Assembly: GCA_001001705.1 (NCBI GenBank)
Contig: LCOG01000008.1
Location: 1 to 52,776 of the forward strand
Direction of reading: 5' to 3'
DNA from: Parcubacteria group bacterium GW2011_GWA2_47_26
GTDB taxonomy: Bacteria; Patescibacteriota; Patescibacteriia; GWA2-47-26
DNA length: 52,776 bases
A program made the position numbers and the translations under genes. The notes below the pieces were generated by a model that ran no database searches, was not told where the DNA came from, and was given only the letters and a program-made list of their open reading frames with translations. Position 1 is the first letter of the stretch; each line of letters begins with the position of its first letter. Of this stretch, positions 5,312 through 52,776 are shown in pieces.

Positions 5312-6061
5312 TTAAGTGGCGGCATGTCCGCCATTTACGATTTTATCATGCAAGCGCAGGGCGGTATGCTTAACGGCTTGCAATTTTTTGGTAAAAAATG
5401 GCCTAAACAAGTGCACAATATACGAAAATGCCATGGATGTCAAGATAAAAATAGTCTTAACCGCGGGCAGACTTGCTAGGATAACAAAAGACATCAAAGG
5501 AAACGCGTAGCGAAACAAGCTATCGCTTAAAGTCAGCGTATCGCGGCGATGCCGCTGGGAACGCCAAATTTGCCAGTACAAAAGAACGCCCACCAATCCC
5601 GCTACATATATATTTTTTTGTGCAATATCAAATCCTAGAAAACGAGTATTGATTACATCTGGCCGCGCTATGCTCGGATATAGCGCATTTAATTTGCCGG
5701 TCATTCCACCAACAAAAACTTGGTACAAAAGCACTAAAGCCAAGAGTTGTATGCCTAACAGGATCGCCGAAGCCCAAGGCTGAATCCGATTTGCGCGCAA
5801 GACTTCTCTAATATGATCTTTGCGGGCAATCGGATCATCTTTAAATTCATTTTGGATAGCAACCAAATCTTCCTGAATTTTTTCAAATTTGAAGCTGTTG
5901 CGTTCCGCTATGATTGAAAATGGGATAAGCACAACGCGCAAAGCCACAGTCATATAAGCAACCGCCAAACCCAGATTTTCAAAGGCTACGTTATTATAAA
6001 GCCAAATCAAAAAATTCAAAAGGGGCGTGAACAAATAATCATGCCAAAATATACTTAACAT
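5312..6061 (-). CDS. yidC: membrane protein insertase, short YidC/Oxa1 family
   Basis: GLAVAYMTVALRVVLIPFS, then an amphipathic helix (KFEKIQEDLVAIQNEFKDDP), then LANRIQPW-type TM helices. Length is 249 aa. Confidence 0.7.
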   Translation of the reverse strand: MLSIFWHDYLFTPLLNFLIWLYNNVAFENLGLAVAYMTVALRVVLIPFSIIAERNSFKFEKIQEDLVAIQNEFKDDPIARKDHIREVLRANRIQPWASAILLGIQLLALVLLYQVFVGGMTGKLNALYPSIARPDVINTRFLGFDIAQKNIYVAGLVGVLLYWQIWRSQRHRRDTLTLSDSLFRYAFPLMSFVILASLPAVKTIFILTSMAFSYIVHLFRPFFTKKLQAVKHTALRLHDKIVNGGHAAT

Positions 6062-6168
6062 AGATTTTGCATGGATTTAGTATAGCACAAAACGCAATCC
6101 AGCGCATCCACAGCCCTATATAAGTTGACACACTGTTATTTTTGCATTAAACTAAAAGCCTGCTCTTT

Positions 6169-6791
6169 TTGGCGGAGGAACGGAGGAATAGAATGTATGC
6201 CATGGCCCATCCGGTCCAGTTTGTAGTACTAACAGCCGAAGAGGAAAGAACGCTAGCCCGTAAATGGCTAGATCACGGAGATGAGAAAGCGCACACACGC
6301 TTGATGGGACTGTTGCCGAATATCCATTTTGGCCATTTCTTCCCAAATACGGCTGCGACTCGTTGAAAATCACTCGAAATAGCTCTGCTATTCCTGCGTA
6401 TTTTCAACTTCGTCTCGCTCGTATTTTGAAAGAACTATCTCAAAAGCATATTCGGCAGGAGTCCCTTGATGCAAGCCTGCATTGGCCTAACATGGAAAAT
6501 CGCCTGGGGCTTCAGGAATTACGGGTTCCCTGTGGAAGATTTGGCGCAGGAAGGCCAGCTTGGCGCAATCAAAGATCTTGCAAAATACGATCCCGCAAGA
6601 GCACGGTTGTACACCTACGCGGCATGGTGGATACGGGCGTACATCCTGACCTATGTTCTCAAAAACTGCAAGATCGTAGGAAGTTGTCGCGCGAACGTGT
6701 GCGACAGCTTGAAGCACGCGCCAAAGCCAAACTCCGCGCGCATATCGCGGCCACTTACGGTAAAGACGCTATAGCAACCCTACTAGGGTAA
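6169..6791 (+). pseudogene. sigma-70 family (RpoH-like) sigma factor remnant, split by a MITE and carrying an internal deletion and frameshift
   Basis: Region 1.2/2.1 (LTAEEERTLARKWLDHGDEKAHTRLM) ends at 6306. Region 2 (QACIGLTWKIAWGFRNYGFPVEDLAQEGQLGAIKDLAKYDP...YAAWWIRAYILTYVLKN) resumes at 6472 in the same frame. Region 4.2 (LSRERVRQLEARAKAKLR) follows directly in another frame, so regions 3 to 4.1 are missing. Confidence 0.8.
6307..6465. mobile_element. 159-bp MITE-like element (GGGACTGTTGCCGAATA family), copy 1, inside the sigma gene
   Basis: Terminal inverted repeats GGGACTGTTGCCGAATAT and ATATTCGGCAGGAGTCCC. Flanked by the direct repeat TTGATG (6301-6306 and 6466-6471). Removing the element plus one repeat restores the sigma reading frame. 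Confidence 0.85.
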
Positions 6792-8037: not shown

Positions 8038-8048
8038 GCCCTTATCAT

Positions 8049-8195
8049 GGGACTGTTGCCGAATACCATTTCTACTGCAAGTTAAGAATTTTGGCTGCGA
8101 CTTTGTGAAACATTCTCAACATATACGCCGTATATGCTTCAAATGTTTCACTTCGTCTCGCTCAAAATTCTTACCTTTCGTAGAACCATGTGTCC
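8049..8195. mobile_element. MITE-like element copy 2 with a degenerate right terminus
   Basis: The first 132 nt (8049-8180) differ from copy 6 (48839-48970) at one position. Confidence 0.8.
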
Positions 8196-9592: not shown

Positions 9593-11473
9593 TTATGGTT
9601 CAACTGGCCTGCTAGGCTTTACTTCAAAATATTGTAGCAAAAATTTGGCTATATCGCCAAAAAGCGGCGCGGCAGTGCTTTCCGCGAATTGCACGCCACG
9701 CGGACGATCAATGCGCGTTAACATGACAAAACGCGGATCTTCTACTGGCGCAAATCCCGCAAAAGTTCCAATAGTTGCTCCCTGCTCATATCCCGGTCCG
9801 TCGCGGCGCGGAATTTGGGCAGTGCCTGTTTTTCCCGCTACATAATACCCCGGCACTCCCGCGCGTTTTCCATGGCCGCGTTCAACAGTCGAAGTCATCA
9901 TTCCCTTTAGCAACGTTGCGGCTTGCACTGAAATCACTTCACGTATTGTTTCCGGCGCAAATTGCACGACAGCCCCGGTGTTTTTTCGTATCTCCTCAAC
10001 AATATATGGCTTAACAAGCTTACCCTGATTGGCAATCGCCGCAAAAGCGGTAACCAACTGAATAGGCGTAACAGCAATACCTTGACCAAATGACGCCGTC
10101 GCCAAATAAATTTCACCCCGTTTTGAAAGCGCGCCTATATCGCCGTCAACTTCGGTGTCTAATTGAATATCCGTTTTCTTGCCAAAACCAAAACGCTCAA
10201 TATAATCTTGAAAACGATCAAACCCAACTTTTTCAGCGGCAAAAATCGCGCCGGTATTTAACGACTGTTCAAGCACCTGCGTCATGGTTTGCACGCCATG
10301 AGCTTTATTGTCAGAATTATTAATTTTATGCAGCCCAACTTTTATTTCACCGGTATCAGTATATGTTGTTTCAGGGGTCACCTCGCCGCTATCAAGCGCC
10401 GCCGCCATAGTTATGACCTTAAATACTGAACCCGGCTCATATTGCGCGGAAATTATTGGGTTATTAAAAACCGCTATATCTTCAACAGAGCGATACTCAT
10501 TCGGATTGAAACTGGGAGAATTGCACATTGCTAAAATTTTTCCTTCCGGGATTTTCATGATGATTACTGATCCTCCCGCGGCATCATATCGGTTGATAGT
10601 TTCTTCCAATTTATTGCAAGCGACATATTCAATAGCCCTATCAATTGTCAAAACTATTGCGCTTCCATCTTGTGCGGGCTGAAGTTCACGTCGCGAAACC
10701 GGAATCCAGCGTCCACCCACATCTTTCTCCCCCTCAAAAAAACCTGGAGCCCCCGCTAATTCATGGTTAAAATAACCCTCAATTCCATAACGGCCGGCTA
10801 ATTTATCGCCTTCGGCACCAACAAAACCGGCAATCTGCGCGCCAATCTCTTTGTTAGGATAATAGCGCACAGATTCTCGCACTGTGTCAATTCCCGCGAT
10901 ATGCAGCTCCTTAATCTGATCAACTACAGACTCCTCAACGCCGTGTTTTAAGGGCTCATAGGGGTCATCGCTTTTTGATAGCCTATCTAATAATTTTTGA
11001 TATTCGTCATTTGCATCCGTCATCGCGAGCCCCGATCCCGCCATCGCGGGACGGGGCGTGGCGATCTCAGGAGATTGCTTCGCTTCGCTCGCAATGACGT
11101 CGTGAGGACGCTTAATTCCAAACAATGGCGCGAGTTTATTAGCTGCATCCGCCGGATCGACAATCATTCTGGGGTCAGCATAAACCAAATAAAGATCCTT
11201 ATTTGTTGCCAGAGCAGTTAAACCGCCTCCTTTGCCTTCATGCATTAAAATTTCTCCTCGTTCAGGAAATAATTTGCGAAAAATTTCGCGTTGATCAGAA
11301 GCCAAAAGCCTATAAGTCGCGCTATCTAACACCTGTAATATAAATAGTCTAAAAATTATGATAAGACCAATAGCAACAAAAGCGCCCTTAATAATTTTAA
11401 GGCGCGTATCTGCGCGCGTAATTTTATGGCTAGTATAACTGCGCTTATTGCTATAACGACTAAAATAAGGCAT
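9593..11473 (-). CDS. ftsI: class B penicillin-binding protein (transpeptidase), FtsI-like
   Basis: N-terminal TM anchor. SxxK (GSVFKV), SxN (NSDN) and KTG (GKTGTAQ) motifs are present. The dcw-like position upstream of murF suggests ftsI, but pbpA/mrdA cannot be excluded. Confidence 0.85.
   Translation of the reverse strand: MPYFSRYSNKRSYTSHKITRADTRLKIIKGAFVAIGLIIIFRLFILQVLDSATYRLLASDQREIFRKLFPERGEILMHEGKGGGLTALATNKDLYLVYADPRMIVDPADAANKLAPLFGIKRPHDVIASEAKQSPEIATPRPAMAGSGLAMTDANDEYQKLLDRLSKSDDPYEPLKHGVEESVVDQIKELHIAGIDTVRESVRYYPNKEIGAQIAGFVGAEGDKLAGRYGIEGYFNHELAGAPGFFEGEKDVGGRWIPVSRRELQPAQDGSAIVLTIDRAIEYVACNKLEETINRYDAAGGSVIIMKIPEGKILAMCNSPSFNPNEYRSVEDIAVFNNPIISAQYEPGSVFKVITMAAALDSGEVTPETTYTDTGEIKVGLHKINNSDNKAHGVQTMTQVLEQSLNTGAIFAAEKVGFDRFQDYIERFGFGKKTDIQLDTEVDGDIGALSKRGEIYLATASFGQGIAVTPIQLVTAFAAIANQGKLVKPYIVEEIRKNTGAVVQFAPETIREVISVQAATLLKGMMTSTVERGHGKRAGVPGYYVAGKTGTAQIPRRDGPGYEQGATIGTFAGFAPVEDPRFVMLTRIDRPRGVQFAESTAAPLFGDIAKFLLQYFEVKPSRPVEP
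11019..11098 (-). repeat. GC-rich palindromic element translated in frame within the PBP gene
   Basis: On the minus strand GTCATTGCGAGCGAAGCGAAGCAATCTCC...GGGGCTCGCGATGAC, with inverted termini GTCATTGCGAGC and GCTCGCGATGAC. It encodes VIASEAKQSPEIATPRPAMAGSGLAMT in the non-catalytic N-terminal module. Confidence 0.75.
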
Positions 11474-12968: not shown

Positions 12969-13257
12969 TTAAGCCATCGCTCCATTTATAAGCTTTAAAT
13001 CTATGCGACACCTCATCCGGCGAGTAACTATACTCAATTTTTGAAGCGCTGCCGCCCAATTTTGAATATATGGTTTTTTTATCAAGCACAACCGGTTGAG
13101 TCGTGCGCTCTAATTTCATTTTGCCTTGCGGGCTGTCAAAACTAATAAATTCAACATACGCGTTCGGTATATATTCCAAATCATACCGGCCTTCTTCAAC
13201 CGCCTTGAATTTAGTTTTAACCATTGCTTTTATCTCATTCCACTTGTCGTCGCGCAT
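12934..13257 (-). CDS. hypothetical protein
   Basis: I place the start at the ATG at 13255-13257 (MRDDKWNEIK...), which is the last 3 nt of the right inverted repeat of the GIY-YIG unit. No family motif. Confidence 0.45.
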   Translation of the reverse strand: MRDDKWNEIKAMVKTKFKAVEEGRYDLEYIPNAYVEFISFDSPQGKMKLERTTQPVVLDKKTIYSKLGGSASKIEYSYSPDEVSHRFKAYKWSDGLNEWEEVKAPPI

Positions 13258-13550
13258 ACCCGGTGTCACAACTTCGATTTATAGTATAAGATTAAACGTT
13301 TTGCAAGAAAACGGCGTCCCCGAGTTGTCTTCAGATATTGCTCGCGTCGGCGCGCATCTTCTTCGTTGGTACATACTTCCGCATAAATGAACCGCATAGG
13401 TAGTCGTGATTTTGTGGAGAATACTTCTCCTTTATAATGTTGTAGAAGTCTTTGTTTAAGATTAGTTGTAAATCCTATATACCGATTGCCATCTTTCCTG
13501 CTCTCTAATATATAGACCCAGAAACCTATCGAAGTTGTGGCACCGGACAT
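13258..13550 (-). mobile_element. 293-bp unit: GIY-YIG nuclease ORF bracketed by 17-nt inverted repeats
   Basis: Left arm ATGTCCGGTGCCACAAC (13550-13534) and right arm GTTGTGACACCGGGTAT(G) (13272-13255) are complementary at 15 of 17 positions. The same arms bound the shorter copies at 1246-1349 and 42483-42609. Confidence 0.7.
13266..13550 (-). CDS. small GIY-YIG domain nuclease (94 aa)
   Basis: WVYILES...NRYIGFTTNLKQRLLQH...EEDARRREQYLK gives the GIY, YIG, Arg and Glu motifs. The start is set at the internal ATG (MSGATTSIGF), 4 nt after the pilT stop. The track start at 13601 would overlap pilT by 47 nt. Confidence 0.75.
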   Translation of the reverse strand: MSGATTSIGFWVYILESRKDGNRYIGFTTNLKQRLLQHYKGEVFSTKSRLPMRFIYAEVCTNEEDARRREQYLKTTRGRRFLAKRLILYYKSKL

Positions 13551-13554
13551 ACTC

Positions 13555-14589
13555 CTAAAAATATCTCCCTTTTTCCGATCCGCGATGCTTAGCCACGACA
13601 TCGGAAATAACGCCGTCTTGATAAAGTTTCTTGACTGCCATTTCCATGGTAACCATGCCGTCCCTTACTGAAGTTTGTATTACAGAGGCAATTTGCGCAA
13701 CACGATGCTCGCGAATCAAATTTGCAATAGCGGGATTAACCAACATAATTTCTCGCGCCGCAACAAGTCCACCACGTACAGTGGGTAAAAGCTGCTGCGC
13801 AATTACTGCCCGCAAGGTTGAGGCGAGCTGAATTAATACTTGGCGCTGACGGACCCCTTCAAACATATCAATAATCCGCTCTACCGTATCGGCCGCTGTC
13901 GGCGTGTGCAAAGTTGAAAGCACTAAATGTCCTGTTTCCGCCGCGGTTAATGCGGCCTGTATGGTTTCAAGGTCGCGCATTTCTCCAACCAAAATAACAT
14001 TGGGATCTTGCCGTAAAACATACTTCAAAGCGCTGGCGAACGAAGGCGTATCCTCCCCTACTTCTCTTTGCTCAATCATGCTTTTTGTATTCGTGTAGAG
14101 AAATTCTATCGGATCTTCTATCGTGATAATATGCGCTGACCTCTCCCGATTAATAATTTCAATCATCGCCGCAAGAGTTGTAGACTTTCCACAACCAGAC
14201 GGTCCAGTTACAAGAATTAGGCCGTGATTTAAATGGGTCAACGCATACATCACTTCAGAAAATCCCAAATCTTCCGGAGTGGGTATTTGTTGCGGAATCA
14301 AACGAGCCGCTAGACCAATCTGTCCCCGCTGAAAATGCAGATTGACGCGAAAGCGCCAATTATCATAAGAATATGCAAAATCCAGCTCGCGCTCATGCTC
14401 AAAATCCGCAAACTGTTCTTTAGTCAAAAGTTCAGTCAATAAACCGGCGAGATCGGTTTTTGTTAAAGGTGTATCCTCTACCGCTATAAGTTCGGAGGCA
14501 ATTCGCAAAGTCGGTTTCGTGCCGGCAATCAAGTGCAGATCCGAAGCTTTTTTATCAATGGCTAACTGAAAATATTTGTCAATTTTCAT
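13555..14589 (-). CDS. pilT: type IV pilus retraction ATPase PilT
   Basis: Walker A GPSGCGKSTT, Asp box, Walker B ILVGEMRD and His box TGHLVLSTLHT. The 344-aa length is typical of PilT. Confidence 0.9.
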   Translation of the reverse strand: MKIDKYFQLAIDKKASDLHLIAGTKPTLRIASELIAVEDTPLTKTDLAGLLTELLTKEQFADFEHERELDFAYSYDNWRFRVNLHFQRGQIGLAARLIPQQIPTPEDLGFSEVMYALTHLNHGLILVTGPSGCGKSTTLAAMIEIINRERSAHIITIEDPIEFLYTNTKSMIEQREVGEDTPSFASALKYVLRQDPNVILVGEMRDLETIQAALTAAETGHLVLSTLHTPTAADTVERIIDMFEGVRQRQVLIQLASTLRAVIAQQLLPTVRGGLVAAREIMLVNPAIANLIREHRVAQIASVIQTSVRDGMVTMEMAVKKLYQDGVISDVVAKHRGSEKGRYF

Positions 14590-14625
14590 ACCGTTAGAGG
14601 CAGGTCATCCTTAGACGACCGTACC
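14590..14625 (-). repeat. CTCTAACGG-type hairpin abutting the pilT start codon
   Basis: On the minus strand GGTCGTC-taag-GATGACC then TGCCTCTAACGGT then ATG. It shares GACCTGC(Y)TCTAACGG with the element at 45516-45630. Confidence 0.6.
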
Positions 14626-24481: not shown

Positions 24482-27400
24482 CTATGATTCAGCCGGGGCC
24501 GGGGGTGACTCAACTGCCGGTTCAGGAGCTGGCTCTGGCGCGGGAGTAGGCGCGGATTCTTGAACTGGCGCGGGAGTAGGTTCTTCTGCTATGGGAGCTG
24601 GAGTGGAGGCCGATTCAGAAGTTGTCGCAGTCTCAATCGGTTCTGGCGCTGGCACTGCGGGAGAACTTTCCACCGGCGCAGAGGCTAGCGCAGGTTCAGG
24701 CGCAGGCGCAGGAGTAGGAGTAGGCTCCGGCGTAGAAACAGGCGCAGAGGCGGGTTCAACTGCTGAAACTGGGGCTTCTTCCGGTTCAACCTCAACTACG
24801 GCGGATGCAGGCTCTTCCGCTACACTTACGTCATCTTGGGGCGTAGCCCGGCCTGCCACAACCGAAGTTGTGGCACCGGGCGTAGCCGAAGGATCCCGCG
24901 ATTCTTGAGTGGCACGGGATTCTTCACGCTGTTCAGAATGACTGTCTTGGGATGTGGAAGATGCCGGAGCAACAGAAACACTGCTTGCGCTAGAGGCCGG
25001 CGCCTCACAAAGCGCTTTTACAAACTCGCCATTGCGAATACTTACACAATACTTCTCGCCCGTTGCCTCATCATACATAATCAACCGCTTCTTTACTTCC
25101 AAATCTTGAAGCATCATATTTCCGCTTGAATCAATGCTCCAAGCACCCGAGGAACTGGCAATGGCCAGCACGCCGGTAAGCGCGCGGCCATTCATATTGC
25201 CGTCAAAAGCGCTCGGTGCCGCAGCAATAGTCCCATCCGACGCTTGCGAGACCGTCAACTGATCCGGACCGTTCCAGAAGGTATTTATTACCTGTACCAT
25301 AACTTGCCCGCGCTCTTCATCAAATTGCGCAAGAGCCATACCAATCACGCGCCCAGAACGCGTAGCTTTCATGGCATGCCCTGGAGTTGAAGAGGTGGTG
25401 AGAAAATCCCCAACTTGGATGGATCCATTCTCGCGCGTCACCTTGACGGGTACGCGCCCGACAAGCGCGACGGGCAGTGGATTATCCTTATCCTCAATAT
25501 TATAGCCCGCAGAAGTGAAGTCACTGTAATTGTCAGAAACAATACCTACCACCGGTTCTTGATATGGTGTACTGGAACGCACCGTCTCTACAATGCGATG
25601 TCCTTGGGTAGTAACGACTTCACGAGTCCCGGGAACCACAATATCTCCGTACGAGACGCCTTGCGCTACAGGAAATTGCTCGGCATAGTCAGCCGTAGGA
25701 GCGCCGTTACAATCCTTAATTGCTTCGGTAGCCGCGCCATTAGTTTCATGACACAACGCATACGGCCCGTTAGCCCCTGTCGCCGTTGCAAAAGTGGCAA
25801 TCACCGTACCCGCCGTTTCCACAATAAACGCGCCCGCATTCACATTAATCGCATCATCCCAGCCGTCGCCGATTATCAATCCCGTCTCCGTCCCAGAACC
25901 GGCAGAAGTCAAAGCCGCAATGTTGACGCCATTAAGCGTGCCGGCGGCTGGACCAGAAGTGGTGGGTGAGACAATGTTTATCCCGGACATGGTACCACCG
26001 GTCACAATGGCGCCGGAGGCGGGAATAAGCACGCGCAGACCATCAGCCGTGACGGTGTCGCCGGTATTTTGGGTAATCACGGGCATGGTCACATTAAGAC
26101 CGCGCCAGGAAAGCACCGCGGCATTGGCGCCGTCAGTAACGCTTAACGCGCCGGCGGCAGAGATATTATATCCAGTGTAAGTGGTGGTGACAGCAGTATC
26201 AGCGGCGGTGAGTGCGTTCATGATGATGTTCGTACCCGTGATATCACGATCAACAGTGCCAGTGAGATTAGTATCAAAATCAAATTGAAGCCCGATTATA
26301 TCGCCAGCACCCTGTGTAGTAGCGCTCGCAAAATCCGCGTTGATGAGCGTGCCGAAAGTCCATTCGGTTTCTAGAGCAAAATCAAGGAAAGTACCGGTGG
26401 CTTGCGGAGTGATTGAAACGTCACCAAGTTCAGTAACCTTGAATACTAAAACCCCCGCGCCCGACAATTCATAATTATTGGCAATTATTTGGAAATCAGC
26501 TGTAGTTGTATCATTATTAGAGTCAATCGCTAATTTAAGATTAGCAGAACTTGCTCCTATAACTCCACCTGCTCCATTTAAGCCCCACTGATCTTGACTT
26601 GATACTTGCAAACCATATGTACTTAAAGTATTTCCACCAACTACAAAGCCGTCGGCTGTTATCTTACTTGATGCCGCGCCATTCACGGCAAAACCTATCT
26701 GGTTGGCCGCTACGGAATAGATGCCTGTGTCAGGGTCGCTTATAAACGCCAAACTAGGCAAAGCCGCGGTACCCGCGCCAAACCCAACATTCCCAGCAAA
26801 ACCAGCCGCCCACGATCTTGTGAGCGTCATGTTTGCCCCTTGCACTGGGTCATCTACATATAACGTATAAGCATCTGATATTGTCAGCGCGCCATCCGCA
26901 TTTCCCGCATAGGTGGGGCCTTGGATGAATACCTCTCTCTGCGTCGCCAGCGGCCCCGCTCCCGCCGCCCAGGTTTTCGTAGCGGAGAAATTAAAGTTTG
27001 CGCCGATATTTTCGGTGGCCGCGGTAAGATTTGTATGAGCCGCGCCTGTTAAAGTTAAGAAGGTTGCCAAGCCAGAAGCTATAGCTCCTTCTGTTAAAAT
27101 AAAATTCCGAGAACTTGCCCCAATTTGTAACGCCGTGCCACCACTGTGAATAATTCTAAATTCATCAGGGGAATTATCTGCAACGATAGACCATGTTCTC
27201 GAACTATTCGTTAATTCAATAGTGAAATCAGAAGCTCCTGTATAGGTTTGAGTGCTTGCCGTGAGAACACTGCGCGCGACATCATTCACACTGAACTCAA
27301 AAGTCGCTCCTGTCGGTACATTGAAATGGAGCTGGTTTGTTGCGTCTGCGTCGCGGCCTATTGAATAAGAAGCCGCTACCATTGCCACGCCGGTATCAAA

Positions 27401-33215: not shown

Positions 33216-33296
33216 GTCATTCTGAGGAGTCCCGCAGGCGCGGGACGACGAAGAATCTCGCACGAATGTGCGATTTTAACAGACACAGACAATGAT
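33216..33296 (+). repeat. intergenic copy of the GTCATTCTGA...GAAGAATCTC family
   Basis: GTCATTCTGAGGAGTCCCGCAGGCGCGGGACGACGAAGAATCTCGCACGAATGTGCG... It shares GAAGAATCTC-CACGAATGTG with the copy inside trxB. Confidence 0.7.
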
Positions 33297-33301
33297 AAGT
33301 T

Positions 33302-34630
33302 TCAGCTCCCATTGCGCAGCTCCTCCTCTATATCCGCCGCTTTATCAAGCACCAGGTTAGCATAATAATTGCAAATGCTTCTTGAGCAATTAGGACTGCC
33401 GCCAATATAGGCGCGCGCCGCGCGCAATTCGCCGGCACGCGTTTTTTCCGCCGCGCCTTGGCGCGATAATTTAATTGCCGCCGCTGTAAAAGCATCCTCA
33501 AGATTCCATGGCGAAGGCGGATTATGCCCTGTCAAGCTCGCTACCTCGCTTTCGTAAGCCAGCCAAGTCTGCGGCAAAAACTGCGCCGCACCCATAGCGC
33601 CGCCCCAGCCATACGACGGCGCTTTTGAAACCGGCGTTGTGTCCGGATCAAGACCTAATTTCTTCGTTATTGCCAAAAAGGCGTCATGATCGCGAGAATG
33701 CATATCCTTGCGCCAGTTGCCTCTCCCGACATTTTGTCCCAGACGCGATTCTACTTCAAGTACAGCAATAAGAAATGAGGCGCGAATGCCGCTCCGAATT
33801 GCCGCGAGTTCTCCGAGCCGCACCGCTTCTTCGGCAGAAACCCCCGCCCGCGCCAGATAGGTAATCTGCTCCCGAATCTTATCAAGATCGCGTTTCTTCG
33901 TCACAATCACCGCCATGATCTTGTTTTTTTCTTTTTCAATTTTAGTAAGAAATCCGGATTGACGCTTGCGCCTTTGCGCCACAATCTCACGCTGCGATTC
34001 TTCTATGCGCTTTAAACGTTCCTGCGATTCCTTGTTCTCAAGAATCTCGCCGCGATCGTTTTCTAACGCGCTTCGGGTTTCCCGCAGAGCATTCAAAATA
34101 TCCTGCAAAGAACCATGAAACTGGCTGAATTCATTTAGAACATTAAAAATATCCGACAATTTTTCCGCTTCAATTAGCCGATTGATCAATGGCGTCTCTT
34201 CGCGCTCTTGGAGCATCCGCAACGCAAGCGCAACCTTTCCTTTAAGGTCGCCGATCTTGCCTTCGGTTTTTTGAAGTTTATTCTCGGTCTGCCGTAATTC
34301 GTATCCAAGTTTTTGCAAAGTCAAATTCAGGCTCCGAATCTCCAACTCGCTCGCCTGAATTTTTTCATTCAGCGCGGCGATGTCGTTTTGAACCGTAGCC
34401 GCCTCGCTCTTTTTGCTGTCCACCGCTTTCCAATGATTATTAATCTGCTGTTCCAAGTTCGCAATTTGCCTCTCTCGCTCCTCAATAAGCTGCGCTATCT
34501 CCTCCGGCGTTTCGGCTCTCACAGCAACGGATGTAAAACCGAAAATAATAAACAAGAAAACTAGGAATCCTACAACAATTGGGTATTGTCTCATACTGCC
34601 ACAAGTATAACAAAAAACAATAGCGCCCAC
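33302..34630 (-). CDS. coiled-coil protein with C-terminal lytic murein transglycosylase (SLT_2/MltB-like) domain
   Basis: Long heptad region (residues 40-260), then LIAVLEVESRLGQNVG and GAMGAAQFLPQTW. An alternative start lies at 34594. Confidence 0.7.
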   Translation of the reverse strand: MGAIVFCYTCGSMRQYPIVVGFLVFLFIIFGFTSVAVRAETPEEIAQLIEERERQIANLEQQINNHWKAVDSKKSEAATVQNDIAALNEKIQASELEIRSLNLTLQKLGYELRQTENKLQKTEGKIGDLKGKVALALRMLQEREETPLINRLIEAEKLSDIFNVLNEFSQFHGSLQDILNALRETRSALENDRGEILENKESQERLKRIEESQREIVAQRRKRQSGFLTKIEKEKNKIMAVIVTKKRDLDKIREQITYLARAGVSAEEAVRLGELAAIRSGIRASFLIAVLEVESRLGQNVGRGNWRKDMHSRDHDAFLAITKKLGLDPDTTPVSKAPSYGWGGAMGAAQFLPQTWLAYESEVASLTGHNPPSPWNLEDAFTAAAIKLSRQGAAEKTRAGELRAARAYIGGSPNCSRSICNYYANLVLDKAADIEEELRNGS

Positions 34631-34824: not shown

Positions 34825-34986
34825 GGGGACTGTTGCCGAATACGCTTTCGTAACGAAAGGTAAGAATTTTGAGCGAGACGAAGCAAAAGGTATGAAGCAT
34901 ATACGCAGTATATGTTGAATAGCTTTTGCAAAGTCGCAGCCAAAATTCTTACCTTGCAGTAGAAATGGTGTTTGGCAACAGTCCCC
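34825..34986. mobile_element. MITE-like element copy 3, full length, inverted relative to copies 2 and 6
   Basis: Termini GGGGACTGTTGCCGAATAC and GTGTTTGGCAACAGTCCCC. TTAG is present on both flanks. Confidence 0.85.
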
Positions 34987-35004
34987 TTAGACAAGTCTAT
35001 TAAC

Positions 35005-35364: not shown

Positions 35365-35384
35365 AAAAAATTAGTCAGGCTTAC

Positions 35385-35544
35385 GGGGACTGTTGCCGAA
35401 TGCCATTTCTACTGCAATCGCGTATATGCGGCTACGGCTTTGCAGAAATTTTTCGACAGATACTGCGTATATGCCTCAAAATTTCTGCTTCGCCTCGCTC
35501 GCATCTTCGCGATTTCGCTACGAAAGCGCATTCGGTACCCGTGC
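35385..35544. mobile_element. MITE-like element copy 4, overlapping the 3' end of the nucleotidyltransferase gene
   Basis: GGGGACTGTTGCCGAATGCCATTTCTACTGCAA...CGCTACGAAAGCGCATTCGGTACCC. Confidence 0.8.
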
Positions 35545-42063: not shown

Positions 42064-42482
42064 CTGTCATTCTGATCCGCCGTTGAGGCGGAACGGTTTA
42101 ATTTCTGACGCAATTCTTCCAACTGGCGCGGATCAACCTCTTCCAGAACATCAACAAATTGCGCTATTGCCACTGATCCAAAATTGCGAAGGATTTCCCC
42201 GAAAAGCACCCTGCTCGTTTTGGCATAAAACGCATCGCGATCATAAGCAGGCTTATAAATAAAACTCCCGTTTGGCAACTCCTCCCTAGATAAATATCCC
42301 TTTTCTGTCATGCGCGTCATCACGGTCATAACCGTTGTGTAAGCCAGATCCCGCCGCCGCCCGACTATCTGCAATATATCGCGCACAGTGCCCGCGCGCC
42401 TTTGCCAAAGCGCCTCTAAAATCGCTTTTTCAAGCATGCCTAAAAGTTGTCCCTTTTTCTTGGTATTCCTAATCAAGGCCAT
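42045..42482 (-). CDS. BlaI/MecI/CopY-family winged-helix repressor
   Basis: LEKAILEALWQRRAGTVRDILQIV...AYTTVMTVMTRMTEKGYLSRE. The last 16 codons come from two repeat termini. Confidence 0.8.
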   Translation of the reverse strand: MALIRNTKKKGQLLGMLEKAILEALWQRRAGTVRDILQIVGRRRDLAYTTVMTVMTRMTEKGYLSREELPNGSFIYKPAYDRDAFYAKTSRVLFGEILRNFGSVAIAQFVDVLEEVDPRQLEELRQKLNRSASTADQNDSRPVAL

Positions 42483-42609
42483 ACCCGGTGCTACAACACT
42501 TTATGCCAATATTGTTGCGTTAAATTCTTGAATCAAACTTATATTTATTGCCTTGCATTTCTACTTGTGCCGACGCCACTTTAATACCGACAGTTGTAGC
42601 ACCGGGCAT
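42483..42609 (-). mobile_element. 127-nt deletion derivative of the GIY-YIG inverted-repeat element (copy B)
   Basis: On the minus strand ATGCCCGGTGCTACAAC...GTTGTAGCACCGGGT followed by the ATG of the repressor gene. The mini-ORF reads MPGATTVGIKVASAQVEMQGNKYKFDSRI. Confidence 0.7.
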
Positions 42610-42614
42610 ACTAT

Positions 42615-44808: not shown

Positions 44809-45515
44809 ACTAATTCACGCATGGAAACACCAGCCAGATCCGTTACTACTAGCTTCGCGGCTCCCTCGATTTTAGGGAAACGCGCTATAAATTCCAGATG
44901 ATGCCCGCTTCCCTCTTGCTGTATAGCAGTCGGATTGATCATATTTGCTTGTCCATCCTGAAGTGCGATTTGCCGTTCCGGACTAAACGCGCTCAAATCT
45001 TCTGAATGCGTATTAATATTTATCGTGAAAACAAGTTCATCGCCCTCTTCAACAAACTCTGCGTCAACAGTTACATTGCCTTCCCCCGCGTCTGTTTTTA
45101 ATTCGCCTCGCCTGGAAACTGCCACAGAACTTTCCTGTGTTCCACCACTACTTGATGCGGTCGGAAGAGCGCATCCGCTTTCAGCCACAAGTTTTTCCAA
45201 TCCTTGTTCCCCTTCTAACTTTTTACCGCCCGAAAATGTCCACGTTGGATAACCATTAACTCCTGCTTCAATGCATCTTGCCGGATGTTTTGGGCATTCA
45301 ATGTATTGAACATAACGAAAAGAGTCTCCAAAAGCTTTTTTCTCATTTTGACAATGCGCGCACCACTCCGCGCCGTACATCGTTACTCCTTTATTGGTAA
45401 GACACTGCGCAAAAGCATCCAATGCTCCACTAGGCACTGCACTCGGGCGAAATAAATAGGATCCCCCACTTACTACCGCAACGATTATGACTGCCCCAAA
45501 TAAATATTTTTTCAT
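44799..45515 (-). CDS. secreted thioredoxin-like protein of the type fused to bacterial VKOR, plus a C-terminal beta domain
   Basis: MYGAEWCAHCQNEKKAFGDSFRYVQYIEC...GVNGYPTWTF matches the Trx-like partner domain of VKOR homologues. Confidence 0.65.
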   Translation of the reverse strand: MKKYLFGAVIIVAVVSGGSYLFRPSAVPSGALDAFAQCLTNKGVTMYGAEWCAHCQNEKKAFGDSFRYVQYIECPKHPARCIEAGVNGYPTWTFSGGKKLEGEQGLEKLVAESGCALPTASSSGGTQESSVAVSRRGELKTDAGEGNVTVDAEFVEEGDELVFTININTHSEDLSAFSPERQIALQDGQANMINPTAIQQEGSGHHLEFIARFPKIEGAAKLVVTDLAGVSMRELVWP

Positions 45516-45630
45516 CCCGTTAGAAGCAGGTCGCGGTCATGCCGCTCTGCTGATTAAGATTCAATGAGATAAAACTGACTTTTTGCATACAGTGGTTTAG
45601 TGAGGCATCGCGACCGCGGCTTCTAACGGG
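45516..45630 (-). repeat. 115-nt hairpin element filling the stop-to-start spacer (CCCGTTAGAAG/CTTCTAACGGG arms)
   Basis: On the minus strand CCCGTTAGAAGCCGCGGTCGCG...CGCGACCTGCTTCTAACGGG followed directly by ATG. It begins 1 nt after the upstream TAG. Confidence 0.75.
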
Positions 45631-46894: not shown

Positions 46895-46996
46895 CCCGTT
46901 AGAAGTTGAAGAATAATTTTCTTTTAAGTGTCCGCTAGACGTTAGTCGGCTTCGTCCCGTTAGAGGTAGGACGCGGACTGCGTCCGCTACCTCCAA
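46895..46996 (-). repeat. hairpin element with two CTCTAACGGGA-type motifs, filling the stop-to-start spacer
   Basis: On the minus strand GGAGGTAGCGGACGCAGTCCGCGTCCTACCTCTAACGGGA...CAACTTCTAACGGG followed by ATG. Confidence 0.65.
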
Positions 46997-48781: not shown

Positions 48782-48838
48782 ACACAAAAGTTTTGTCTAG
48801 TCAAGCGTTGTGGATAACTTCTATGTACCCCGCCTAAT

Positions 48839-49000
48839 GGGACTGTTGCCGAATACCATTTCTACTGCAAGGTAAGAATTTTGGCTGCGACTTTGTGAAA
48901 CATTCTCAACATATACGCCGTATATGCTTCAAATGTTTCACTTCGTCTCGCTCAAAATTCTTACCTTTCGCGCACATGGCCGCATTTTTGGCACTGTTCC
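48839..49000. mobile_element. MITE-like element copy 6
   Basis: GGGACTGTTGCCGAATACC...TTTTTGGCACTGTTCC. 131 of the first 132 positions are identical to copy 2. Confidence 0.85.
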
Positions 49001-50900: not shown

Positions 50901-51060
50901 AGACCTCTTGCAGAATAATTTTTCGTTGCGAAATTCAAAAATTTTGAGCGAAAATTATGAAGAATGAGGAAGCGATGTGGCTATATCGTTGACGAATTCT
51001 GAATAATTTGCAGCCAAAATTTTTGAATTGCAGTAGAAAGGATTATTCTGCAAGAGGTCT
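50901..51060. mobile_element. variant MITE with GACCTCTTGCAGAATAAT termini, filling a stop-to-start spacer
   Basis: AGACCTCTTGCAGAATAAT...ATTATTCTGCAAGAGGTCT. The interior shares TTTTGAGCGA, GCAGCCAAAATT and TTGCAGTAGAAA with the main family. Confidence 0.8.
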
Positions 51061-51845: not shown

Positions 51846-52776
51846 TCAAGATATTGACGGCACAACTACCGGCAAAGCATGAATATCGCAGGATTGCCCG
51901 CCATGAATTCCTAAATCCTGATACGCCGAAGTTGCCGCCATAGCGCCTTGCGCCGCGGCAATAATGTCTTGACGGAATGATCCGGCTCCGTCAGTAATGT
52001 CACCCGCTGCAAAAACGCCATCAACATTCGTCCGCATAAATTTATCAACATGAATATAGCCCCGCTCATCAAGCTTCACTCCCAACTTTTTAGCCATCTC
52101 GTTATTAGGCACTGCGCCGATTTGTATAAACAATCCCCCCAATTTTAAATTATCCGATCCTTGATATGGCCGCGATAAACGCACACCTTCAAACTTTTGA
52201 TCGCCAATAATTTCCTTGACTTCAGTCTCGTATAAAATCTCGGCCCTTCCAGTCTTTAGTAAATTTTTTTCAAAACGCTCCCAATTAACCGGCTCGGCTT
52301 TAATTTTAGCGCCGCGCACAATTAAATACAACTTGAACACATACTGCCCTGCCAAAATAGCGCCCTTAACTGACGCGTCACCGCCCCCCACAATAGCAAT
52401 CTCTTTTCCTTTATAAAGCGGGGCATCACAAGTCGTACAATAAGAAATGCCCTTACCGGTCAATTCCTTCTCTTTGGGCAATCCTAAACGGCGTGAACGC
52501 GCGCCAATGGCAAAGCAAACTGTGCGCGAAAGCAAATGCGCGCCGTCAGAAGTAAGCAAATCAAAACAATGCCCGCCAGTTTTGTCATCCTGAGCGTAAG
52601 CGAGGGATCCCGCGCGTATGCGCGAACCCACATTCGTGGGAGATTCTTCACTTCGTTCAGAATGACGTGGCATATGCGGGATGATGGACAAATTTCTGTT
52701 GGTGGATAATTGAAATTTTCCTGTATTGATAAGCAATTTTAGCTGTTTCTGATACAGTTTCACGTGTATGAAAATT
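51846..52776 (-). CDS. trxB: thioredoxin reductase-like flavoprotein, 5' end beyond the window edge
   Basis: GISYCTTCDAPLY (redox CxxC), IAIVGGGDASVKGA (NADPH site) and GVFAAGDITDG. The frame is open to position 52776. It contains a repeat-encoded insert. Confidence 0.75.
   Translation of the reverse strand, partial: IFIHVKLYQKQLKLLINTGKFQLSTNRNLSIIPHMPRHSERSEESPTNVGSRIRAGSLAYAQDDKTGGHCFDLLTSDGAHLLSRTVCFAIGARSRRLGLPKEKELTGKGISYCTTCDAPLYKGKEIAIVGGGDASVKGAILAGQYVFKLYLIVRGAKIKAEPVNWERFEKNLLKTGRAEILYETEVKEIIGDQKFEGVRLSRPYQGSDNLKLGGLFIQIGAVPNNEMAKKLGVKLDERGYIHVDKFMRTNVDGVFAAGDITDGAGSFRQDIIAAAQGAMAATSAYQDLGIHGGQSCDIHALPVVVPSIS
52584..52666 (-). repeat. GTCATTCTGA-family element translated in frame within trxB
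   Basis: On the minus strand GTCATTCTGAACGAAGTGAAGAATCTCCCACGAATGTGGG...CGCTCAGGATGAC. It encodes HSERSEESPTNVGSRIRAGSLAYAQDD. Confidence 0.75.

Follow-up and report, generated by a model that had tools for sequence, protein, structure and literature searches.

A palindromic hairpin doublet lying in frame in a class B PBP gene of a Patescibacteria genome and its probable relation to Ssn-type GIY-YIG cassettes

The Rickettsia palindromic elements (RPEs), which Ogata et al. are said to have described in 2000, reportedly lie in frame in many protein genes. The insert analyzed here resembles them: it is a palindromic doublet of 80 nt in the gene of a class B penicillin-binding protein (PBP) on contig LCOG01000008.1 of Parcubacteria group bacterium GW2011_GWA2_47_26 (Patescibacteriota; assembly GCA_001001705.1). 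RPE-1 is longer, about 100–150 bp. The window is the whole stretch of DNA that was analyzed, 52,776 nt of this contig. Coordinates without a contig label refer to the window (contig C8), and C-labels denote contigs of the genome under study (G000; 842 kb, 26 contigs, 80%-complete).

CGTC-tagged repetitive extragenic palindromes (REPs) are described by Di Nocera et al. (PMC3733652) as having a CGTC or TGTC tag, a stem of 8–9 positions that starts with A-T, a 4–5-nt loop, and a short unpaired tail with the consensus CCA, and as forming head-to-head dimers in five phyla. According to the same paper, R. conorii RPE sequences end in CGTC, the copies inside R. conorii genes being RPE-4 and RPE-6, and intragenic CGTC REPs are often found in repair and tRNA genes, where they encode 20–30 residues; most copies are intergenic, and no dedicated transposase was found. 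In the work of Chenal et al. 2025 (PMC11893778), NTS (CGTCATTCCCGCGMAVGCGGGAATCYRG) and related SRM hairpins flank ssnA, a 94-aa GIY-YIG gene (cd10448). SsnA and three homologues cut single-stranded DNA (ssDNA) site-specifically beside the hairpin, and the loops were extendable in vitro; such cleavage has been shown only for the Neisseria and Wolbachia Ssn (PMC11893778). The NTS-ssnA-NTS arrangement was remarked to look like an insertion sequence (IS), mobility being only a hypothesis, and the Neisseria Ssn/NTS system was read as a modulator of natural transformation. That text mentions neither in-frame or intragenic copies nor Patescibacteria.

The features of the PBP locus are the following:
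9593–11473, minus strand: host gene, class B PBP of 626 aa, with PBP_dimer and Transpeptidase domains; best NCBIfam matches SpoVD/PBP2/FtsI
11019–11098, minus strand: whole palindromic doublet, GTCAT...ATGAC, 80 nt, read through as PBP residues 126–152
11073–11098, minus strand: half-unit A, TGC type, GTCATTGCGAGCGAAGCGAAGCAATC; stem ATTGC/GCAAT, tandem G.A, inner GC-GAA-GC; encodes VIASEAKQS
11067–11072, minus strand: spacer TCCTGA, 6 nt; together with the ATC/GAT next to it, it gives the palindrome ATCTC-CT-GAGAT at the junction
11019–11066, minus strand: half-unit B, CGC type, inverted; two more nested hairpins in its loop; encodes ...IATPRPAMAGSGLAMT

The plus strand of 11019–11098 reads GTCATCGCGAGC...GCTCGCAATGAC, and the coding (minus) strand, from 11098 to 11019, reads GTCATTGCGAGCGAAGCGAAGCAATC-TCCTGA-GATCGCCACGCCCCGTCCCGCGATGGCGGGATCGGGGCTCGCGATGAC. 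The termini are inverted and differ at one T/C, and with C and G at 11018 and 11099 the doublet has the family-typical ends Y-GTCAT...ATGAC-R. Every hairpin stem of this copy was intact. Half-unit B has three nested levels (CCCCG/CGGGG, innermost TCCCGC-CATC-GCGGGA); its innermost hairpin is similar to the NTS/dRS3 core, and a counterpart of half-unit B without this hairpin is present at C10:26626–26661. The computed folding energy of the insert was −51.9 kcal/mol (z = −4.6 against dinucleotide shuffles). PBP residues 126–152 (27 residues), VIASEAKQSPEIATPRPAMAGSGLAMT, contain no stop. The palindrome of about 80 bp with inverted termini and an open frame, as proposed in the initial annotation, was thus confirmed by the sequence, the fold, and the 626-aa open reading frame (ORF). 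The 12-mer terminus by itself was within chance expectation in the window, the Rfam scan of the window at gathering thresholds returned three tRNAs only, and a full-text literature search with the terminal 11-mers returned primers only.

The insert consists of two units placed head-to-head. Each unit has the form (T/C)GTC + AT-NNN + GA + inner hairpin + GA + complement of NNN-AT + C, with the consensus GTCAT-YSY-GA-[GC GAA GC or longer hairpin]-GA-RSR-ATC. The stem comprises nine positions (5 bp, tandem G.A, and 2 bp), the loops are of 3 nt (GAA, GCA, GTA) or consist of nested hairpins of 10–40 nt, and the tail is C(C/T)CG. The minimal inner hairpin, GC-GAA-GC, carries the GCGAAGC motif, which Hirao et al. 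reportedly found to be an unusually stable DNA mini-hairpin. Outer stems were observed in the matched variants TCT/AGA, CCT/AGG, TGC/GCA, CGC/GCG, TCC/GGA, CCC/GGG, and TTC/GAA. In 44 aligned 25-nt units, three TGC-type rows of which were one base out of register, GTC was invariant, standard pairs filled 96% of the pair cells, and the pairs A6-U26 and U7-A25 were constant in the correctly aligned rows. Covariation in the outer stem is partly circular, because the detector demanded a perfect outer stem. The inner pair was not imposed by the detection rule and was the sole unbiased covariation test: it was G-C in 23 units, A-U in 19, G-U in 2, and unpaired in none. The hairpin of the unit is conserved, and its changes are compensatory. 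GTC was preceded by T in 26 of the 37 doublets and by C in 7; in the PBP copy, both ends carry CGTC.

The insert is, with good confidence, a non-autonomous selfish element, namely a TGTC/CGTC hairpin doublet that represents the ORF-less form of a ~390-bp cassette in which hairpins flank a gene for a ~100-aa Ssn-type GIY-YIG protein. Seven GIY-YIG matches were found in the genome. One of them, a 99-aa ORF (C5:33445–33744), lies exactly between a TCT unit (33401–33435) and an inverted CCT unit (33751–33792), and a second hairpin-flanked GIY-YIG gene follows an NTS-like unit (C23:5963–6300 locus, ORF about 6001–6300). The Pfam GIY-YIG scores were 62.9 and 62.6 bits, all NCBIfam matches were sub-threshold, and the solved structure nearest to the Ssn-like GIY-YIG was UPF0213 BH0048 (E = 0.005). 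Homologues of the C5 GIY-YIG protein were present in three of 120 hairpin loci from other genomes (L083, L136, and L143), each time in the order GTCAT-hairpin, ORF, hairpin-ATGAC. The cassettes of L083, from a Planctomycetota metagenome-assembled genome (MAG), and L136, from a Bacillota MAG, are flanked by TGC-type hairpins, and the right-hand hairpin of both is identical in 28 of 28 nt to 11071–11098, i.e., half-unit A and two spacer bases.

The spacers of the doublets agree with the sequences found at the cassette junctions, CCCGT... and ...GCTTT(T)A(T/C)AGAACGGG. In the short doublets (oriented TCT-left, CCT-right), the left junction is ...GAAGAATCCCGT, and the right one, GCTTT(T)A(T/C)AGAACGGGATCC, equals the last ORF codons. 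Since the short doublets keep the junctions that flank the ORF in the cassette, they are internal-deletion, ORF-less derivatives of it. The cassette type to which the PBP doublet belongs is TGC, with the junction ATCTC...GAGAT at the place where full cassettes carry the GIY-YIG ORF.

The best understood precedent for such doublets is the REPIN, a REP doublet mobilized by a REP-associated tyrosine transposase (RAYT; PMC3337134), and the genome does encode a Y1_Tnp/RAYT-like ORF with an HFH motif and YIHLNA (C5:67971–68597). Mobilization by such an IS200/IS605-type Y1 transposase, rather than by a GIY-YIG nuclease, is nevertheless very improbable: no GTCAT unit is present within ~1 kb of this ORF, a different repeat family lies upstream of it, and it scores 32 bits against an NCBIfam cut-off of 80. 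RAYT-associated REPs are tagged GTAG, whereas the units here carry (T/C)GTC, and in four unrelated genomes it is GIY-YIG genes that they flank. No Y1 transposase flanked by CGTC REPs was found by Di Nocera et al. (PMC3733652). The RAYT was rejected as the mobilizing enzyme on the ground that the genome's only Y1 transposase-like ORF is not flanked by units. A classical miniature inverted-repeat transposable element, with DDE-type IS terminal inverted repeats and a target-site duplication, was rejected as well, as the 37 doublets were bordered by no direct repeat and shared only Y at −1 and R at +1.

In the PBP, the insert lies between LAPL(L/F)GI and YQxLLxRLSKxDDPYEPLK. The linker between these motifs comprised 18–60 residues (median 22) in 117 homologues, and the segment L114–D170 of this PBP has 55. 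An indel had been predicted at this position, and the alignment agreed: the linker is indel-variable, and the two closest genomes (65–67% identity) have unrelated linker residues and no palindrome in the DNA. No decayed palindrome copies were found in the DNA of the nearest orthologues. A metagenome homologue (L178) has the linker KCKMENEKCEEG, as in the G003 orthologue. Solved SpoVD/PBP3 structures could be aligned only from residue 155 or 172 onward. In an AlphaFold2 model of the PBP (118 sequences, mean pLDDT 92.4, pTM 0.86), pLDDT was 68 for residues 131–140, 56 for 141–150, and ~97 on either side, with a short helix at 123–132 followed by coil to 151. The insert is accordingly modeled as an excursion from the non-catalytic pedestal. 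This fits the initial annotation, which had placed the insert in the N-terminal non-catalytic module and anticipated a surface loop; the modeled site is a low-pLDDT coil between well-predicted segments.

An assembly artefact, in which a repeat-induced chimera put the palindrome in the PBP gene, is extremely unlikely. Short-read contigs do break at the repeat, and positions 10892–11035, which include the left junction, were covered by no independent contig in four metagenome runs (coverage ~4x). The right junction, however, was crossed by metagenome contigs from two samples, which ran from the element interior into the flank at 11099 and onward with zero mismatches. To the left and right of the insert, the ORF is also collinear with its homologues in a single frame, and an insert of this kind occupies the corresponding position in an independent homologue.

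This homologue, P0001, is 64% identical to the PBP and carries VIASAAKQSQRSPRSDASDLAMT (VIASAAKQS...DLAMT) at the insert site, which is the translation of a TGC+CGC doublet; the comparison is at the protein level only. The linker residues flanking its doublet differ from those of the PBP under study, and P0001 was not sister to it in the FastTree topology (single protein, linker excluded). The other 14 members of the P0001 clade have unrelated linker sequences, some of them derived from other repeats. Our reading, from the aligned proteins, is that a tolerant site has received insertions recurrently; a possible alternative is that the doublet was retained for long and lost elsewhere. The homologues P0004, P0009 (= G004, L003), and P0011, from other lineages, have ANLRISNSEIRK-like peptides at the same linker, which look like a translated AT-rich palindromic repeat of another kind. 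The site therefore seems to be hit repeatedly by different elements.

Retention of a same-type doublet at one site despite differing flanking linkers could also mean selection, i.e., that the hairpin or loop has been co-opted for the PBP as an mRNA stability or pausing signal or as a protein interaction loop, and the intact stems of the PBP copy would suit such a role. We consider this quite improbable. P0001 is not a sister of this PBP in the single-gene tree, recurrent insertion explains the unrelated linkers in the rest of its clade equally well, the same peptides are present in ~39 unrelated proteins, and the insert region is modeled as disordered.

The motif GTCAT[TC][GCT][CT]GAG occurred 90 times in the genome. 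A strict scan returned 119 units, equal to 82 elements (37 doublets and 45 units with a partner failing the strict rule), and a covariance model of the unit gave 111 matches. Forty-six of the 82 elements lie inside 39 ORFs, taken as stop-to-stop frames open for at least 30 codons on both sides, so that at least 5% of the ORFs in the genome are hit (39 of ~770). By crude gene calling (772 ORFs, 89.4% coding), 54 elements were inside ORFs, 5 across an ORF end, and 23 intergenic. Compared with random placement, the elements were depleted in coding DNA (54/82 vs 89% coding, P = 1e-8), and the intragenic share, 56–66% of elements, is far above what is usual for REPs. Pfam domains were detected in 29 of 31 scanned host ORFs (30 scanned against Pfam, plus the PBP itself, judged by its homologues' PBP_dimer and Transpeptidase), often with a single domain envelope across the insert. 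The hosts include UvrD, RecG, RseP, PheT (two copies), PGK, FolD, SMC, a second class B PBP, XerC/D (two copies), several glycosyltransferases, Wzy-type ligases, ATP synthase gamma (AtpG), a PfkB kinase, TGT, RsmH, TyrRS/TrpRS, a reverse transcriptase, a histidine kinase, and the TrxB-like ORF of the window. In the second class B PBP (C4:37896–39851), a unit is read as DSLACGLRMT (residues 536–545) within the transpeptidase domain. The reverse-transcriptase ORF (C12:5873–6943, RVT_1) has an in-frame CGC+TGC doublet inside the RT domain envelope.

Related copies had been noted in trxB, in a giant gene, and in one intergenic position. All three were located in the window:
24830–24942, minus strand: sister doublet in a 2537-aa ORF, in frame, SHSEQREES...ATPQDD; a 31-nt palindrome of another family is nested in the loop of the left unit
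52584–52666, minus strand: sister doublet in a Pyr_redox_2 (thioredoxin-reductase-like) ORF, in frame, RHSERSEES...AYAQDD
33216–33296, plus strand: intergenic sister copy; left unit intact (33216–33256), right arm degenerate

In-gene copies used both orientations and all stop-free frames, and the units gave recurrent peptides (RHSERSEES, RHPERSEGS, VILxxxK, ...LRMT, ...AQND). No gene split out of frame by a copy was found in the genome. Five intergenic copies between same-strand ORFs were checked, and all separate complete, distinct genes, e.g., rplK/rplA and rplB/rpsS. The count of copies in and out of frame was therefore in line with the proposed in-frame insertion, with 46 of 82 deep in open housekeeping ORFs and the five checked non-ORF copies between complete genes. 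The doublets at C4:19582–19655 (rplK-rplA) and C6:22141–22208 (rplB-rpsS) occupy nearly the entire spacer in ribosomal-protein operons.

Perfectly pairing ends would bring the flanks together, so the element might instead be removed from the transcript in an intron-like or processed manner, leaving a PBP without the 27 residues. This is highly unlikely, as all in-gene copies keep the host frame open and stop-free, a condition that excision from the RNA would not impose, and both orientations and several frames are in use. No split gene was among the five checked ORF pairs, no Rfam family or ribozyme was matched, and R. conorii proteins with an N-terminal RPE-1 were reportedly expressed in vivo (cited in PMC3733652).

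Under the preferred reading, an ORF-less derivative of an Ssn-type cassette, the doublet would have been inserted as DNA, probably via single-stranded hairpin intermediates cut by an Ssn-like nuclease in trans. Frame-breaking copies would then have been purged by selection, the survivors being those in intergenic spacers and tolerant protein loops, and the 27 extra residues would be made and tolerated as a passive surface loop with no function of their own. Both mobilization by an Ssn-like nuclease and translation of the insert are inferred.

Several points weigh against this reading. Translation of the insert is predicted from the open frame, the gene having been found in no RNA run, and we know of no integration chemistry for a lone GIY-YIG nuclease. 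No TGC-type ssn cassette was found in the 80%-complete assembly, the flanks of its ssn-like genes being of the TCT/CCT and NTS types. The flanks of the 37 doublets showed no direct repeat or target-site duplication and were conserved only in Y at −1 and R at +1. Doublet lengths gave no clean rule modulo 3 (coding 4/5/11 vs non-coding 6/4/7), and since coding copies fall in several modulo-3 classes, the element boundaries are not exactly defined. An empty-site allele of this PBP was not found, the nearest homologue being ~66% identical, and the insertion event is therefore deduced from family membership. The metagenome contigs, at ~4x coverage and broken at the repeat, showed no joint of an empty site either. 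The published SRM string fits neither half of the PBP insert nor the TCT/CCT consensus.

More tentatively, and with some doubt, we propose that hairpin-flanked ssn-type cassettes may be autonomous mobile elements that use an ssDNA nuclease instead of a transposase. Their ORF-less doublets could then explain the spread of CGTC REPs and Rickettsia-type elements, and in spacer-poor Patescibacteria they might be a major continuing source of in-frame loop insertions.

The hairpin was also widespread outside this genome. In GTDB genomes, at least 120 stretches contained a degenerate 26-nt unit, where our own calculation gives ~0.1 by chance; these genomes include Alpha-, Gamma-, and Deltaproteobacteria, Chloroflexota, Bacteroidota, Nitrospirota, Planctomycetota, Fibrobacterota, and Bacillota. 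Being spread over many phyla, it is not a lineage-specific invention. The TGC unit occurred in groundwater and soil metagenomes with summed contig depths in the thousands. In 40 relatives of the same Patescibacteria class, the covariance model gave 0–80 matches per genome, 15 of the 40 having none, and five genomes of the same family had 0, 2, 6, 8, and 29 matches.

Other repeat families were observed in the genome. Another small GIY-YIG ORF of the window (13266–13601, minus strand) is bracketed by the inverted repeats CCCGGTGYCACAAC / GTTGTGGCACCGG (13252–13551), and ORF-less versions, ~110 nt long, are present at 1240–1350 and 42477–42610. A 31-nt minimal palindrome, CCGGYCTGCCACAACCGAAGTTGTGGCACCGG, lies inside GTCAT-unit loops (24846–24877; C20:7216–7280) and is flanked by the direct repeat GGCG(T/A)AGCC, which resembles a target duplication. 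A 134-nt palindromic family starting with GGGACTGTTGCCGAATA was found at 8047–8180, 35384–35517, 48837–48970, 34854–34990 (inverted), 6292–6472, and 50901–51060. A related sequence lies directly upstream of the sole RAYT-like Y1 ORF (C5:67900–68600; 32 bits vs the REP_Tyr_transpos cut-off of 80), and this family and the RAYT-like ORF may form a RAYT system of the terminal inverted repeat type. A third repeat, TTCATCCCGTTAGAAGCAGGTCGCGG, is located at 14585–14610, 45511–45536, and 46951–46976, as well as in the flanks of two truncated GIY-YIG ORFs (C15:13379–13507 and C15:18091–18222); its copy at 14585–14610 overlaps the start codon of a PilT-like ORF (start 14589).

In-frame colonization of genes by palindromic repeats, known from Rickettsia and a few Proteobacteria, is hereby extended to the candidate phyla radiation, where its intensity is unusual: over half of the copies are intragenic, and both class B PBPs, PheT, PGK, SMC, and ATP synthase gamma are affected. 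One small genome holds intragenic doublets beside full Ssn-like GIY-YIG cassettes, which makes the Ssn-like GIY-YIG protein a concrete candidate for the enzyme of the CGTC REPs, sought without success by Di Nocera et al. For MAG annotation, the unit-derived peptides (RHSERSEES, VIASEAKQS, ...LRMT, ...AQND) matter in that they inflate protein lengths and seed spurious ORFs, and the units escape the published SRM search string.

Compared with the CGTC REPs of PMC3733652, the units share the unpaired tag, the A-T/T-A stem start, the head-to-head dimers, and the intragenic copies, possibly the short unpaired tail, and also the kinds of host genes (here UvrD, RecG, PheT, and TGT). They differ in that the CGTC REPs described there come from five phyla without Patescibacteria and are mostly intergenic, whereas here the intragenic share is 56–66% and units lie on either side of a candidate enzyme gene. 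On these sequence features, the hairpins are TGTC/CGTC-tagged REPs, placed at the level of the superfamily, above its families CGTC-1 to -4.

With the Ssn/SRM system of N. meningitidis (PMC11893778), the shared features are the 5' (C/T)GTCAT tag, the closing ...ATC, tens to hundreds of copies, a tolerance of extended loops, and the order hairpin, ~100-aa single-domain GIY-YIG gene, inverted hairpin, seen at C5:33401–33792 and in three other genomes. The abundant units here differ by a 5-bp outer stem, tandem G.A, and an inner hairpin. The SRM string HGTCWYN(0-2)YYVSBRHN(0-5)WNVSBRGN(0-2)RNCYNB gave 8 matches in the genome (6 of them NTS-like) vs 1–6 in shuffles. Six canonical Neisseria-type NTS copies are present, e.g., TGTCATTCCCGCGAACGCGGGAATCCAC at C5:86163–86190. 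Judged by sequence, the element so appears to have the defining architecture of both the CGTC REP and the Ssn/SRM frameworks, in a variant that the published SRM pattern misses.

The REPIN/RAYT system (PMC3337134) is similar in its inverted hairpin doublet with a short spacer, its non-autonomous nature, and its presumed single-stranded hairpin substrate, but its tag is GTAG, its enzyme is an HUH tyrosine transposase, and its copies are essentially extragenic, in contrast to (C/T)GTC and a candidate GIY-YIG nuclease here. The likeness to the Rickettsia RPEs that the initial annotation had pointed out was supported: RPE-4 and RPE-6 are CGTC-tagged REPs, and the tag and the stem rule are followed here. 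Both are palindromic repeats lying in frame in many protein genes of a small genome, at apparently tolerated surface positions, with a CGTC terminal tag, a likeness drawn from the tag and the description. They differ in phylum and lifestyle, the present host being a groundwater Patescibacteria member, and in that nuclease-encoding full-length relatives of the doublets are found here in the same genome.

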